DNA of 64,000 nucleotides from Candidatus Nomurabacteria bacterium (GCA_031425235.1 JANPIZ010000006.1:30803-94802), one strand, 5' to 3'. Shown: positions 33,086-40,733, counted from the stretch's first letter. The notes: generated by a model from the letters alone, not told the origin. Program-made: numbers and translations.

Positions 33086-34048
33086 ATGACAACTGAGCAA
33101 TATCAAATAATTCTTTTTTATAAATATGTGCATCTCGATGACCCAGAGGCAGTTAAGATGTGGCAAAAGGAATTATGCATGCGGCTCGGAATGACAGGTA
33201 GGTGTATCGTTGCAAGCGAAGGAATTAATGCAACCTATGAGGGTACGAAGGAAAATATAAGGCAGTATATAAAAGAACTACAAAAGAACTCTAAATTTAA
33301 AGATATCCATTTTAAATTGAGCGATGGTACAGGGAATGCCTTTCCAAAACTTTCCGTAAAAGTTCGCAACGAAATTGTGTCGCTCAATTTAGGTACGTGT
33401 GATATCGACCCAAATGAAATCACTGGCATACATTTGAAACCAAAAGAGCTGCACGAGTGGATACAAAACAAAAAAGAATTTTATATAGTTGATATGCGAA
33501 ATGCCTACGAACACAAGATAGGGCATTTTGAAGGTTCCATTTTACCGCCGATCGAAAATTTTCGTGATTTACCAAAAGTTGTCGAGCAGATAAAACATTT
33601 AAAAAATAAAACCGTGCTTACTGTGTGTACCGGCGGAGTACGTTGTGAAAAAGCATCCGGATTTTTGATCACTCAAGGATTTACAGATGTGTATCAGCTC
33701 GACGGCGGCATTGTCAGCTACATGGAACGCTACCCAAATGAAGACTTCAAGGGTAAGCTCTATGTGTTTGATGGACGAGTAGCTATGGGTTTTTACACAG
33801 ATGATGCAAAGCATAAAATAGTCGGCAAATGCGATGCCTGCAAAGAGCCATCAGAAAATTACGTAAATTGTTCAAATCCAGTGTGCCACAGGCATTTCAT
33901 TTGTTGTGAGAAATGTTTAAAAAATGAAGGTAAACCTGCCCGCAATGCTTCTAGCATAGCTAGTGCAGGCGGGGCTTTTTGCATAGGTGGATGCGTGCTT
34001 TCAAGACACGGACGAAAAATTAGCCCCCTCGAGGTGAATTTGGTATAG
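33086..34048 (+). CDS. trhO: rhodanese-domain tRNA U34 hydroxylase TrhO (YceA/UPF0176)
   Basis: N-terminal MTTEQYQIILFYKY…, rhodanese active-site Cys region (VLTVCTGGVRCEKAS), C-terminal Cys cluster; contains one 39-bp repeat insertion. Confidence 0.75.
   Translation: MTTEQYQIILFYKYVHLDDPEAVKMWQKELCMRLGMTGRCIVASEGINATYEGTKENIRQYIKELQKNSKFKDIHFKLSDGTGNAFPKLSVKVRNEIVSLNLGTCDIDPNEITGIHLKPKELHEWIQNKKEFYIVDMRNAYEHKIGHFEGSILPPIENFRDLPKVVEQIKHLKNKTVLTVCTGGVRCEKASGFLITQGFTDVYQLDGGIVSYMERYPNEDFKGKLYVFDGRVAMGFYTDDAKHKIVGKCDACKEPSENYVNCSNPVCHRHFICCEKCLKNEGKPARNASSIASAGGAFCIGGCVLSRHGRKISPLEVNLV
33935..33973. repeat. 39-bp in-frame palindromic repeat copy A (encodes [13 protein letters not shown]) inside trhO
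   Basis: CCTGCCCGCAATGCTTCTAGCATAGCTAGTGCAGGCGGG. Confidence 0.95.
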
Positions 34049-34078
34049 TTATGTATTATAAGTTTATATTTTTATTAT

Positions 34079-34333
34079 ATGGCAGAAATAGAAATACATG
34101 GTAAAAAAGTAAAATATGATGAAAGCAGCGACTCAACAAAGTACGCTGTTAAGTATTTACAAAGATTAGATAGTAGTGAAGCTAAAAATTATTTTAAAAC
34201 TGCAGAGAGAGATAAATACTCACGATTTGAGACACCAGACAAGCCTGGGGATAGTAGTATAGAGCATAATATGACTTTAGAATATGATGCGAGCGAAGGG
34301 GAGTATAATCTTAGAAAAAGAACACGACGCTAA
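34079..34333 (+). CDS. hypothetical protein
   Basis: 84-aa ORF. Confidence 0.35.
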   Translation: MAEIEIHGKKVKYDESSDSTKYAVKYLQRLDSSEAKNYFKTAERDKYSRFETPDKPGDSSIEHNMTLEYDASEGEYNLRKRTRR

Positions 34334-34376
34334 TTAAATTAAAATTCTTATTAATAATTAAATATTAAATAATATT

Positions 34377-34610
34377 ATGTCAGACGAAAAGGAGGTAAAA
34401 TTAAAAATTGGAGAGCATGAGATTAATCAAGACCATCATCCTCATGCGTATGCTGCAATAAAAGGGATGAGTGAGACTATGCGAGAACAACTATTTCACA
34501 ATGCTCACAATTCAGGACACGGCGGTATTTTTAACGTACACATAAACGGAAAAAATTTTGAATATAGATTATCAAAAAATGGAGAAATTCACCAGGCACA
34601 CCATAATTAA
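34377..34610 (+). CDS. hypothetical His-rich protein
   Basis: 77-aa ORF; GGAGG RBS-like sequence upstream. Confidence 0.4.
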   Translation: MSDEKEVKLKIGEHEINQDHHPHAYAAIKGMSETMREQLFHNAHNSGHGGIFNVHINGKNFEYRLSKNGEIHQAHHN

Positions 34611-35308
34611 TGAAAGAAGAAAATAAAAAGGGAACAATGCATCCGCTTTCAATAGTAACAAGCCAGCTTGTTGATATTTTTATTGATCTTGGTTTTGAAA
34701 TTGCCCTAGGTCCAGAAATTGCAACTGAGTATGACAACTTTGATTCCTTGAATGTTCCAAAAGATCATCCTGCTCGAGACATGCAAGACACTTTTTGGTT
34801 AAAAGATTCACCAGGAAAAGTATTGAGAACCCATATTAGTTCAATGCAAGTACCGTATATGAAAAATAATAAACCTCCATTCAAGATGATTTCTCCTGGC
34901 AAGGTCTTTCGAAACGAAGCTACTGATTCTACACACGAGATGCAATATAATTATATGGAAGGATTAGTAGTTGCGGAAGGTCTTTCTGTGTCACATTTAA
35001 AAGGTATTTTACTTGAATTTTTAAAAAGATTTTTTGGTGACAGTGCAGATATAAGGCTGCGTCCCAGTTTTTTTCCTTTCGTGGAACCGGGATTTGAGAT
35101 TGATGTATGGACGGGTAAAAAATGGATAGAAATATTAGGTGCAGGTATGGTTCATCCAAAAGTTTTAGAAAACGGGGGAATAGACCCAAAGAAATTCAGT
35201 GGTTTTGCGTTCGGGATGGGAATAGATAGAATTATGCTTTTAAAGTATGAAATTCCAGATGTGCGACTTTCTTATCAAGGAGATTTACGCCTTAATCAAT
35301 TCAACTAA
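34610..35308 (+). CDS. pheS: phenylalanine--tRNA ligase alpha subunit (short form)
   Basis: Class II aaRS motifs: FRNEATDSTHE (motif 2 region), GAGMVHP…GFAFGMGIDRIMLL (motif 3). Confidence 0.9.
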   Translation: MKEENKKGTMHPLSIVTSQLVDIFIDLGFEIALGPEIATEYDNFDSLNVPKDHPARDMQDTFWLKDSPGKVLRTHISSMQVPYMKNNKPPFKMISPGKVFRNEATDSTHEMQYNYMEGLVVAEGLSVSHLKGILLEFLKRFFGDSADIRLRPSFFPFVEPGFEIDVWTGKKWIEILGAGMVHPKVLENGGIDPKKFSGFAFGMGIDRIMLLKYEIPDVRLSYQGDLRLNQFN

Positions 35309-35317
35309 AATATCAGC

Positions 35318-38398: not shown

Positions 38399-38443
38399 GA
38401 AGCAAAAAATCAAAAAAGAGAAAAATCGAATAAGGGAATAATT

Positions 38444-38485
38444 TTGGGGCGGTGTTTTACACTTAGCCCCAATTCTTATTTTATA
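38444..38485 (+). terminator. rho-independent terminator
   Basis: TTGGGGC-(loop)-GCCCCAA followed by TTCTTATTTTA. Confidence 0.55.
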
Positions 38486-38597
38486 CATAAAACTCTCAAA
38501 TTTAAGCGTGGTTTTCACTAGTAAATAGATAATATTTCTGCTACCCTGTAGTAGATTTTGCTAAGGCAAATTAAGGATAATTTGCGAATTTATTCAT

Positions 38598-38626
38598 TAG
38601 GAAAATTCACTACAGGGTGCTATAAT
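38598..38626 (+). promoter_or_regulatory. gyrB promoter (extended -10 TGCTATAAT), flanked by CCCTGTAG/CTACAGGG inverted repeat
   Basis: TG-n-TATAAT at 38618-26, 11 nt before ATG (near-leaderless); inverted repeat at ~38545 and ~38611. Confidence 0.5.
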
Positions 38627-38636
38627 ACACATAATT

Positions 38637-40733
38637 ATGGCAAAAGAAAAAGACGACAAAGACACTAAAAAAGCCCATGTTTACGGGGCTTCTGACATTT
38701 CTGTACTAGAGGGCCTCGAACCTGTACGCCGCCGCCCCGGCATGTATATCGGCACCACCGGGCCAGAAGGGTTGCACCATCTCGTATGGGAAATTTTCGA
38801 TAACTCTCGCGATGAGGCAATGGCAGGACGATGTTCACGTATCGAAGTAGCCCTACTTCCAAATGATTATATTCGTGTCGCTGATGATGGGAATGGTATC
38901 CCCGTGGGCATTCACCCGAAAACAAAAGTATCCGCGCTTGAAACAGTCATGACGGTACTTCACGCCGGCGGAAAATTCGACAACAATGCTTACAAAGTTT
39001 CCTCTGGGTTGCACGGAGTGGGTGCTTCAGTTGTGAATGCTTTGTCAGTGCATGCAAAAGCTATCGTGCATCAAGATGGAGGCATTCATATGCAAGAATA
39101 CAAGATCGGTAAACCCCAAGGTAAAGTAAGGCAAATAGGGAAATCAAAAGAACATGGAACCATTATCTTGTTCCAGCCCGACGGCACTATATTCAAAGAA
39201 GGGACTGCGTATGATTATCATAAAATCATCAACCATCTTCGTCAGCAAGCGTATCTCGTCAAGGAACTTTTGATTACTGTTATTGATGCACGCGAGGCGA
39301 ATCCAGAAGAACTCGAACAGGTACTCGAGAAAAATTATTGGTTGAAAGGCTCGGCATTAAATGTACCCGATCATTCTTTCTATTTTGAAGGCGGACTTAT
39401 ATCACTTGTAAAATATTACAACAAACTTCAAAAGCCAATTCAGAAAAATATATTTTATGTTAACAAAGAGATTGATGATGTCGGTGTAGAAATAGCTCTC
39501 CAGTACGTGGACGATATTGTGGACCGCATTATTCCATTTGCGAATAATATTTACACTCGAGAAGGGGGTACACATGTGACTGGTTTTAAAACCGCACTTA
39601 CTCGAACGGTAAACACCTACTGCAAGAAAAATGAAATGCTCAAGGAAGCCGAAGGCGGCTTTACTGGCGATGATGTGCTCGAGGGGCTCACCGCGGTCAT
39701 ATCAGTAAAACTTCCCGAAATTCAATTCGAGGGGCAGACAAAAGGGAAGCTTGGGTCTATGGAGGCTCAAGGGGCGACTGCGACCGTGTTCGGTGAGGCT
39801 TTTACGGCTTTCCTAGAAGAGAATCCGGATGATGCTAAATTCATCATCAACAAGTCAATTTTGGCCCTCAAGGCCCGTAAGGCAGCCAAGGCAGCCAAAG
39901 ACTCCGTGCTTCGTAAAGGAGCACTCGAAGGTATGACTTTACCGGGCAAGCTCGCTGATTGCCAAAGTAAATCGGCGGCTGAATCAGAGCTATTCATCGT
40001 GGAGGGAGATTCGGCAGGGGGTAGCGCCAAACAAGGGCGCGACCGCCGCACGCAGGCCATACTGCCACTTCGGGGAAAAATATTAAACGTAGAACGTGCT
40101 CGTATCGACAAGATGCTTGCTTCCAAAGAAGTAAAGTCACTCGTTATTGCTATGGGTACATCGATCGGGGACACTTTCGATATCGAAAAAATGCGTTATC
40201 ATAAAATGATCATAGCTACTGATGCTGATGTGGATGGCTCACACATTCGTACACTCCTCCTCACTCTTTTTTATCGATATTTCCGACAAGTTATTGACGC
40301 GGGATATGTGTACATCGCTCAACCACCACTTTATAAAATAAAAAAAGGTAAACAAATTTTTTACGCTTACACTGACGCAGAAAAGGAAAAAATAGTCGGT
40401 AAGGGTGCCGAGGTTGCAGAAATAGAGGAGGTAGAAGAACCCACACAAGAAGAGATCCTTGAAGACGAAAAATCACCTGCCCGCAATGCTTCCAGCATAG
40501 CTGGTGCAGGCGGGAACAAGTTCCACATACAACGCTTCAAAGGTCTCGGAGAAATGAACCCCGAAGAACTTTGGGAAACAACTATGGATCCGGCAAATAG
40601 AGTGCTCAAACAAGTGAACATTGAGGACGCCGAAGAAGCAAATAAAATATTCGACGTACTCATGGGCTCCGAAGTTCCTCCTCGTAAATCATTTATTCAG
40701 TCCAATGCGAAACTCGCTGAGATCGATATCTAA
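38637..40733 (+). CDS. gyrB: DNA gyrase subunit B (contains one 39-bp repeat insertion)
   Basis: GHKL ATPase motifs (…[10 protein letters not shown]…, [14 protein letters not shown]), QTK loop (QTKGKLGS), TOPRIM ([15 protein letters not shown]), [11 protein letters not shown]-terminal tail. Confidence 0.9.
40476..40514. repeat. 39-bp in-frame palindromic repeat copy E inside gyrB
   Basis: CCTGCCCGCAATGCTTCCAGCATAGCTGGTGCAGGCGGG ([13 protein letters not shown]). Confidence 0.9.

Follow-up and report, generated by a model that had tools for sequence, protein, structure and literature searches.

Lineage-specific, in-frame insertions of a 39-nucleotide palindromic element in core genes of Patescibacteria

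Short GC-rich palindromes in AT-rich, compact genomes are known from organelles, where they are represented by the GC clusters of yeast mitochondrial DNA (mtDNA) and the double-hairpin elements of Allomyces mtDNA. Among bacteria, the Rickettsia palindromic elements (RPEs) are confined to Rickettsia, where a genome contains tens to hundreds of them; the unit is roughly 100-150 bp in the case of RPE-1. RPE-1 to RPE-8 were reportedly described by Ogata et al. in 2000 and 2002, and RPEs are also treated in PMC3733652 and PMC10969869. Repetitive extragenic palindromic (REP) stem-loops of 20-40 bp, tagged with GTAG or CGTC, have been found within known genes in Opitutus, Rickettsia, Thauera, Xanthomonas, and other genera (Di Nocera et al. 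2013, PMC3733652). The host genes of these intragenic REPs include tRNA synthetases, pseudouridine synthases, and genes of DNA metabolism, sometimes with two copies per gene, and movement as single-stranded DNA (ssDNA) by an HUH tyrosine transposase was proposed (PMC3733652). Here we describe a 39-nt palindromic unit that is present five times in a stretch of 64,000 nt of Candidatus Nomurabacteria bacterium (GCA_031425235.1 JANPIZ010000006.1:30803-94802), which is called the window throughout. The unit had been picked out in a sequence-only reading of the window as an in-frame insertion in trhO, pheT, and gyrB. That observation is real, and its interpretation is essentially right. A literature search returned no published account of the element sequence or of its peptide, and nothing relevant on palindromic or in-frame repeats in Patescibacteria or the candidate phyla radiation (CPR). 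The claim that no equivalent had been described in a reduced-genome or CPR-like lineage agrees with this result, but the concept itself was already known from the intragenic REPs of other phyla (PMC3733652). The novelty is therefore one of lineage and form, namely a small, low-copy, in-frame palindromic insertion element in Patescibacteria, and not one of concept.

The window was searched with the degenerate 39-mer pattern of the sequence-only reading, and shuffled sequence was used as control. Exactly five matches with 0-1 mismatches were obtained, all of them on the + strand, where 0 were expected from the shuffles. No sixth copy was detected in the 64 kb at up to 14 mismatches, and a covariance model likewise found none. 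The copies and their host genes are as follows.

33086..34048, + strand: host gene of the TrhO type (Pfam UPF0176_N + Rhodanese + Rhodanese_C)
33935..33973, + strand: copy 1 (CTAGC subtype), read in phase 0 of the TrhO-type gene, with Cys-rich motifs of the C-terminal rhodanese_C region on either side
35318..37273, + strand: host gene pheT (Pfam), with three copies and two other in-frame GC-rich inserts
36452..36490, + strand: copy 2, at site 1 of PheT, within the linker that joins the B5 domain to the catalytic-like module
36746..36784, + strand: copy 3, a clean 39-nt insertion (PARNVSSIASAGG) into a beta-hairpin loop at site 2 of PheT
37004..37042, + strand: copy 4, a clean 39-nt insertion into the first FDX-ACB domain loop, at site 3 of PheT
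38637..40733, + strand: host gene gyrB (Pfam)
40476..40514, + strand: copy 5, CCAGC/GCTGG subtype, in the acidic linker of GyrB, a clean insertion between TCA and AAC

Alignment of the copies with 60-nt flanks showed that the unit is exactly 39 nt long, with similarity ending at the unit boundaries and unrelated sequence on either side. All five copies begin at a codon boundary (phase 0) of a long + strand open reading frame (ORF) and are translated into PARN(A/V)SSIA(S/G)AGG, a peptide of 13 residues. The positions, length, and frame given in the sequence-only reading were reproduced in this way. Copies 2 and 4 are identical in sequence. The G+C content of the element is 62-67%, compared with about 38% for the window. 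The spacings between consecutive copies are 2517, 294, 258, and 3472 nt, so that all five are confined to 6.6 kb; under a uniform model, such clustering within 64 kb has p about 5e-4. As had been noticed, spurious antisense ORFs arise on the reverse strand of each copy, which is an issue for annotation; they lie inside the Pfam-supported host genes. The host genes had all been called essential, but TrhO is not usually counted among essential genes.

Evidence for insertion was obtained by comparing PheT with its 120 best homologues (Patescibacteria, Paceibacteria or 'Nomurabacteria'-like by name) and GyrB with 120 homologues. The motif was absent from 118 of the 120 PheT homologues, with only the window protein and homologue P0013 carrying it, and likewise from 118 of the 120 GyrB homologues. 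The short form was present in 101 PheT homologues at site 2 and in 114 at site 3. The nearest PheT relative (P0002, on locus L039) is about 80% identical and syntenic, and opposite the inserts of sites 2 and 3 its pheT DNA shows clean gaps of 39 nt without a duplicated target. For site 1, the comparison with the same locus revealed a 39-nt insertion plus an 18-nt deletion in the window gene; the lost 18 nt lie between the direct repeats CCAAAGATA and CCAAAAGTA in the relative. For gyrB, the sequence of the window reads GAAAAATCA, the 39-nt unit, and AACAAG, whereas the empty site of locus L043 (91% identity) has AAAAAATCA joined directly to AACAAG. The TrhO of locus L041 (79% identity) is devoid of the 13-residue segment. 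Because the nearest relatives have empty sites, the five copies are lineage-specific insertions, as had been claimed, and not a duplicated domain.

The same filled and empty sites contained no target-site duplication, again in agreement with the sequence-only reading, and the combination of terminal inverted repeats with a target-site duplication of fixed length was not observed. Imperfect direct repeats of 9-14 nt flank only a few of the intergenic copies described below, at variable offsets. No target consensus was found over 39 insertion events, the sole trend being an A at position -1 in 21 of them.

The position of the copies within the proteins was assessed with an AlphaFold model of PheT (mean predicted local distance difference test (pLDDT) score of 64, used coarsely only) and with a comparison of GyrB linkers. 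In the PheT model, the three copies coincide with residues 371-393, 476-488, and 565-577, all with pLDDT values <50. The two other lineage-specific inserts correspond to further segments of low confidence, at residues 80-90 and 514-552, and all of these segments fall between regular secondary-structure elements. In GyrB, the copy is part of a variable acidic linker directly before the conserved tail; this linker has 40 residues here and 7 in the GyrB of S. aureus. In another genome, a copy was located in RpoA, where a linker joins the N- and C-terminal domains. The in-frame copies lengthen linkers and loops by 12-13 residues that are small or polar. A location of the copies in linkers or low-confidence loops is thus supported by the model and the linker comparison, and both are consistent with the earlier suggestion that insertions are tolerated in loops.

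PheT also contains inserts of other kinds. Another palindromic element, unrelated to the first and 90 nt (30 codons) long, is present in frame at 36852-36941 (+) and encodes the peptide AEPDAFTQVLGSPGAQPRPDHEQKHTGSAS. Its outer arms of 12 nt, AAGCCGAGCCTG and CAGGCTCGGCTT, are perfect, and the ssDNA hairpin has a predicted energy of -32 kcal/mol (z -8.2). The 90-nt element is also present in pheT of loci L039 and L040 and, as a segment of variable length, in many PheT homologues. A 30-nt GC-rich insert at about 35551-35580 (+) encodes RPNGDSSGRA in frame and has self-complementary ends, CCGTCCG...CGGGCGG; it is absent from 118 of the 120 homologues and has pLDDT values <50. Unrelated short peptide inserts of GC type (GSSSAQSSGGT, SSSLRSDLKGAQGP, NLPRLPSGKAGF, and others) were observed at PheT sites 1 and 2 in homologues P0026, P0030, P0032, P0040, P0054, P0082, P0086, P0087, P0095, and P0115, and site 2 is a hot spot with unrelated inserts in ten other homologues. 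Several insert families seem to use the same permissive PheT sites.

The top strand of the element was predicted to fold alike as RNA and as ssDNA, as the sequence-only reading had suggested should be examined. An unpaired 5' tail of 4 nt (CCUG) is followed by three stacked helices, CCCGC/GCGGG, UGC/GCA, and an apical stem of 5 bp closed by AUA. Fold energies were -18 to -20 kcal/mol for RNA and -11 to -13 kcal/mol for DNA (z about -2.2 to -3.2), and the same fold was predicted for six variants with different apical stems. The nested CTAGC-ATA-GCTAG hairpin read from the sequence was recovered in these folds, with copy 5 in the compensated CCAGC/GCTGG form. The GC-rich ends had been described as complementary; the arms do pair in CCCGC/GCGGG, but the outer arms are only imperfectly complementary and CCUG is left unpaired. 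The unit ends are CCTG...CGGG, or CCCG...CAGG on the other strand, and the arms are CCTGCCCGC... and ...GCAGGCGGG. A compensated pair separates the two main 39-nt subtypes, with CTAGC/GCTAG in one and CCAGC/GCTGG in the other. In length variants (34-43 nt) the arms are retained and the apical stem is exchanged for another self-complementary sequence, namely CGC/GCG, CACGC/GCGTG, CCCCGAC/GTCGGGG, or CCCG../..CGGG. In a model-based alignment, 97.3% of the pair cells were standard and nine cells were changed on both sides, a result matched by 0 of 500 shuffles; G-U pairs were tolerated. The basal stem is conserved in sequence, and the apical stem only in structure. Compensatory changes in the stem alter the encoded peptide, and synonymous positions are conserved. 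Because the peptide is altered by these changes, the conserved entity is the nucleic acid structure and not the protein segment. A search of Rfam gave no match at gathering thresholds and, at permissive thresholds, none on the element, and an origin as a fragment of a structural RNA was rejected for want of Rfam similarity.

The distribution of the element was investigated by two DNA scans and a protein profile search. The genome scan used the core pattern on one genome per species (185,579 species) and retrieved six other genomes, all of them metagenome-assembled genomes of Patescibacteria (Minisyncoccia or Paceibacteria), with one copy each. The metagenome scan, in which only the arms were fixed and the centre was left free, yielded 32 contigs that carry the element. 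Altogether, 44 further loci were collected, with more than 20 different, mostly housekeeping, host genes and one phage contig. About two thirds of the copies are intragenic, and about ten are intergenic. The hosts with sense-strand, phase-0 copies include RpoC, GatC, LeuRS, a YifB/ComM-type ATPase, and an RluD-like pseudouridine synthase, as well as RsmH, YidC, RRF, RsmI, TrmD, RpoA, KsgA, AtpB, GatB, and Obg. An SH3-domain surface protein, several unannotated proteins, and the N terminus of another GyrB were found in the same class. A profile of the five peptides, applied to 1.84 billion cluster representatives, gave nine matches, seven of which were true and added RuvA, GAPDH, S15, and others; such a search undercounts, as insert-bearing proteins cluster with insert-free ones. 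It also uncovered an ...IADAGG arm variant that the DNA patterns had missed. PARSASSAASAGG is a further form. An artificial peptide profile of 41 columns returned one candidate only. Two copies lie close together in each of loci L036 and L041. The element is therefore a family spread over Patescibacteria, and its recurrence in frame in many unrelated genes of the phylum fits the resemblance to the in-frame palindromic elements of Rickettsia that had been pointed out.

Viral contigs were included in the search. The strict-core scan of these contigs gave no match, and a looser scan gave one phage contig (locus L044), where a 14-nt imperfect direct repeat, CGACACGYCGTTAC, flanks the copy:

5081-5116: 36-nt copy just upstream of a putative major head protein gene, on an IMG/VR contig of 51% G+C, predicted phage

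Several loci showed further peculiarities. The LeuRS fragment of locus L003, which has a 39-nt copy in the editing domain, also holds in-frame DUF559 endonuclease and NUDIX domains. In locus L006 (300-420), the copy is placed between a partial duplicate of the gatB 5' end (ATGGAAAAGAAATATTACC, MEKKYYP) and the true gatB start 12 nt downstream, and the in-frame reading runs to a stop. Locus L041 encodes, at 4878-6017 (-), a single-chain PheRS (tRNA-synt_2d + FDX-ACB, 379 aa) of mitochondrial-like organization that replaces pheS/pheT, and the TrhO of this locus has two other GC-rich inserts, PARPDFLGGG and PVRQPAQSEFQGGGG. In the window, the sequence CCTACCCGCGCCGATACTGCGGG at 21649-21671 (-), in codon phase 0 of the minus-strand type III restriction gene Res (19974-22247), may be related to the element as a short or decayed form.

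Because the DNA-level search for copies was blind to reading frame, frame and orientation could be scored independently. About 25 independent coding copies were in sense orientation and phase 0, versus 2 in antisense (p about 2e-10 against an expectation of 1/3). The antisense copies lie in long ORFs, one a Pfam-supported TsaD and the other an ORF of 380 aa. Phase +1 of the element always carries TAG. Phase +2 is closed by TAG in the CTAGC subtype, while 12 residues would be encoded by it in the CCAGC subtype. The preference for phase 0 is thus due in part to the stop filter in the other phases. One phase +1 copy was seen on two contigs, within 1826-2100 of locus L009 and in L019, where a small coiled-coil-like ORF is truncated and a frame of ~86 residues is restored when the 39 nt are removed. 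Length followed the same pattern. Variants of 38, 41, and 43 nt are intergenic or in short unverified frames, variants of 36 and 39 nt occur in genes, and the context of a 34-nt copy (L033) is ambiguous; lengths not divisible by three were found only outside confirmed genes. Among the intergenic copies, about eight are co-oriented with the neighbouring genes and two are opposed, and some lie just upstream of starts or just after stops. As the orientation bias extends to intergenic copies, selection on the peptide alone is no explanation.

The element was then compared with the described systems, in the case of RPEs by description only. It resembles RPEs in being a palindrome located in frame in housekeeping genes of a small AT-rich genome, with one preferred frame, surface or linker positions, additional intergenic copies, and no known dedicated transposase. 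It differs from them in its unit of 34-43 nt, in the few pristine copies per genome, and in the near-identity of its sequence across many Patescibacteria. With intragenic REPs it shares an imperfect palindrome of 20-40 nt, a short unpaired end tag, a bulged stem, G-T pairs, and compensated subfamilies. However, the tag is CCTG (CAGG on the other strand) and not GTAG or CGTC, the copies are mostly intragenic, and copy number is very low. Patescibacteria are not among the lineages reported for GTAG/CGTC REPs. REPIN-type inverted doublets were absent from the 45 loci, and no gene for a REP-associated tyrosine transposase (RAYT) was found among the about 55 window ORFs or beside intergenic copies. 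Membership in the RPE or REP/RAYT families is not supported. Palindrome-associated elements derived from IS200/IS605 are similar in the lack of a target duplication, in their hairpin ends, and in strand-specific insertion, which here too would be linked to ssDNA. Their insertion point is 3' of a fixed tetra- or pentanucleotide, and their two ends carry different hairpins, in contrast to the single hairpin and absent target consensus observed here. The mtDNA elements are alike in that some are in frame in coding genes and that they spread partly by gene conversion, but they are organellar and of unrelated sequence, and the GC clusters of yeast have short target duplications.

We favour, with moderate confidence, the interpretation that the 39-nt unit is a small non-autonomous insertion element of the hairpin type in Patescibacteria, which inserts strand specifically and survives in genes only if a flexible loop is what its stop-free frame adds. 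Complete units, their ends fixed, were found at unrelated sites within and between genes, they are present or absent between close relatives, and old copies decay. The element would be neutral or selfish DNA, with selection filtering the copies after insertion. An ssDNA step is suggested because the sense-strand bias includes intergenic copies, because the anatomy is that of a tail plus hairpin, and because there is no duplication. For insertion into or from ssDNA, the strand involved could be the lagging-strand template or, in transcribed genes, the non-template strand; the top strand of the element would be the sense strand, and so the non-template strand in transcription and the lagging-strand template for genes co-oriented with replication. 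IS200/IS605 transposases, and RAYTs in their action on REPs, follow the same logic. A hairpin-recognising enzyme of the IS200/IS605 or RAYT type, or an equivalent, would act in trans, and the five clustered copies of the window may have arisen by local hopping.

Several observations weigh against this interpretation. No transposase was found next to any copy, including the intergenic ones, or among the about 55 ORFs of the window, where the only recombinase is an unrelated-looking large serine recombinase. Copy number is low, with a pristine core in 6 of 185,579 species-representative genomes and one copy in each, unlike the populations of REPs and RPEs. A conserved upstream target sequence as in IS200/IS605 elements was not seen. 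GC skew in the window follows gene orientation and gives no replication direction, so that transcription-linked and replication-linked strand bias are not separable. The invariance of the arms was partly produced by the search patterns used; arms can in fact change, as in the Obg copy (CCTGCCCGCAGCGC...) and in decayed copies. Finally, at three of the five sites, more distant relatives have a decayed copy at exactly the same nucleotide position, with the nearest relatives empty. The PheT of P0013 (66% identical) has PARNASDIADAGG at site 2 and PASSDASQGG (10 residues) at site 3, and the GyrB site of locus L041 (79% identical) contains a decayed 33-nt copy, CCTACCCGCTCTCCTACGTTGGGAGCAGGCGGG. 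Occupation of the same sites in distant orthologues, which the sequence-only reading had named as evidence against a mobile insertion, is thus partly observed, at PheT sites 2 and 3 and at the GyrB site of more remote relatives, although the nearest ones are empty. Mobility and the active proliferation proposed there are inferred; no transposase was seen, and copy number per genome is low elsewhere.

Decayed copies at shared sites with empty nearest relatives are not predicted by simple random transposition. Possible causes are a small number of permissive sites, recombination of gene segments, or precise excision in most lineages. The insertions might be rare and old, and now be spread mainly by homologous recombination or gene conversion of segments between related Patescibacteria, which take up DNA, or between copies rather than by transposition, which we regard as unlikely. 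The sharing of PheT sites 2 and 3 with P0013 and of the GyrB site with L041 is as expected from such exchange, as are pristine copies where other lineages have decayed ones, and EDEKS residues beside the GyrB copy are common only to the two insert-bearing genes. The low copy number per genome and a type IV pilus cluster in the window also fit. However, primary insertion must have happened many times to account for more than 20 host genes and the intergenic copies. Five copies are clustered in 6.6 kb, with three in one gene. PheT site 2 takes unrelated inserts in other lineages, which points to a permissive site over shared descent.

Although nearly invariant across hosts, pristine copies are rare in any one genome. 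The element may be the product of machinery of an undescribed kind that puts a sequence-invariant hairpin cassette of ~39 nt strand specifically into the sense strand of expressed genes, phylum-wide and at very low copy number, with sites re-used or refreshed in different lineages and possible carriage by phages. We consider such machinery rather improbable. If it existed, it would be neither a REP/RAYT system nor a classical miniature inverted-repeat transposable element, and the cassette would be the smallest known routinely translated mobile unit.

The conservation of the basal stem and internal loops across hosts, together with the covarying apical stem, is typical of a protein-binding hairpin, although a transposase would impose the same kind of conservation. 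It is quite unlikely that the unit is instead a functional cis-element bound by a conserved host protein, either a signal for RNA processing, stability, or pausing or a protein-binding DNA site clustered near gyrB, for which the reading frame merely reflects tolerance. The bias towards the transcribed sense strand, which includes intergenic copies, some of them near starts or stops, and the tolerance of G-U pairs agree with this proposal. The closest relatives are empty and older copies decay, however, so that no purifying selection acts at a given locus. The host genes and positions have nothing in common, and no Rfam match was obtained.

Palindromic ends around a variable centre would also be expected for a footprint, that is, for the joined ends left after a larger mobile element, for instance a transposon or an integrated element, was excised from a gene. 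The low, sporadic occurrence and the copy in a phage contig would suit this very unlikely origin, but no larger element bounded by both arms was present in the 45 loci, the variable centre keeps a compensated stem, unlike a random joint, and the unit length is constant. It is hardly credible that the 13-residue peptide is the selected unit (as a tag, modification site, or protease site), despite the same frame in nearly all coding copies, given the conserved synonymous positions, the compensatory changes that alter the peptide, and the intergenic and antisense copies, or that the repeats are assembly artefacts, which was rejected as the copies come from independent assemblies of many projects and differ by point variants. 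Three further candidates were rejected: a CRISPR array because of the irregular spacing and the location of copies inside conserved genes; an intron, intein, or bypass element because the unit is too short, its flanks cannot pair, and the frame is kept open; and a DNA uptake sequence because copy number is far too low.

Other features of the window were recorded as well. The serine recombinase (25938-27641, +; Resolvase + Recombinase + Zn_ribbon_recom) abuts or overlaps a tRNA-Ser GGA gene (27573-27661, -), the only tRNA gene of the window, and is preceded by unannotated ORFs upstream (24732-25936). This region is probably an integrated element. The type IV pilus cluster (PilM, PilO, PilB-like, PilT-like, PilC, pilins, and prepilin peptidase) extends over 3281-15165, and a type III restriction-modification pair, Res and Mod, over 19974-23961. 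LigA and housekeeping genes are also encoded. The 1.36 kb between pheT and gyrB (37274-38636) contain only small ORFs. A promoter-like sequence, GCTTTACATATATTT, occurs there twice, at about 37285 and about 37857, and hairpins resembling terminators are found at 37799-37832 and at 38001-38033. On the contig of P0013, pheT and gyrB are almost adjacent.

Patescibacteria genomes are among the smallest and densest of bacteria, and repeats that persist in core genes such as gyrB, pheT, rpoA, rpoC, yidC, frr, and those of aminoacyl-tRNA synthetases are unexpected there. The element stands out by its size, its spread through the core genes of a minimal-genome phylum, its strand bias, and its odd population structure. 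From the family one can read, as from a natural map, which loops of essential proteins tolerate insertions. It is a source for the many protein inserts that are lineage-specific in the phylum, and a marker for recombination between uncultured lineages. It is also a tractable case of how a low-copy sequence of 39 nt stays nearly invariant across many species.

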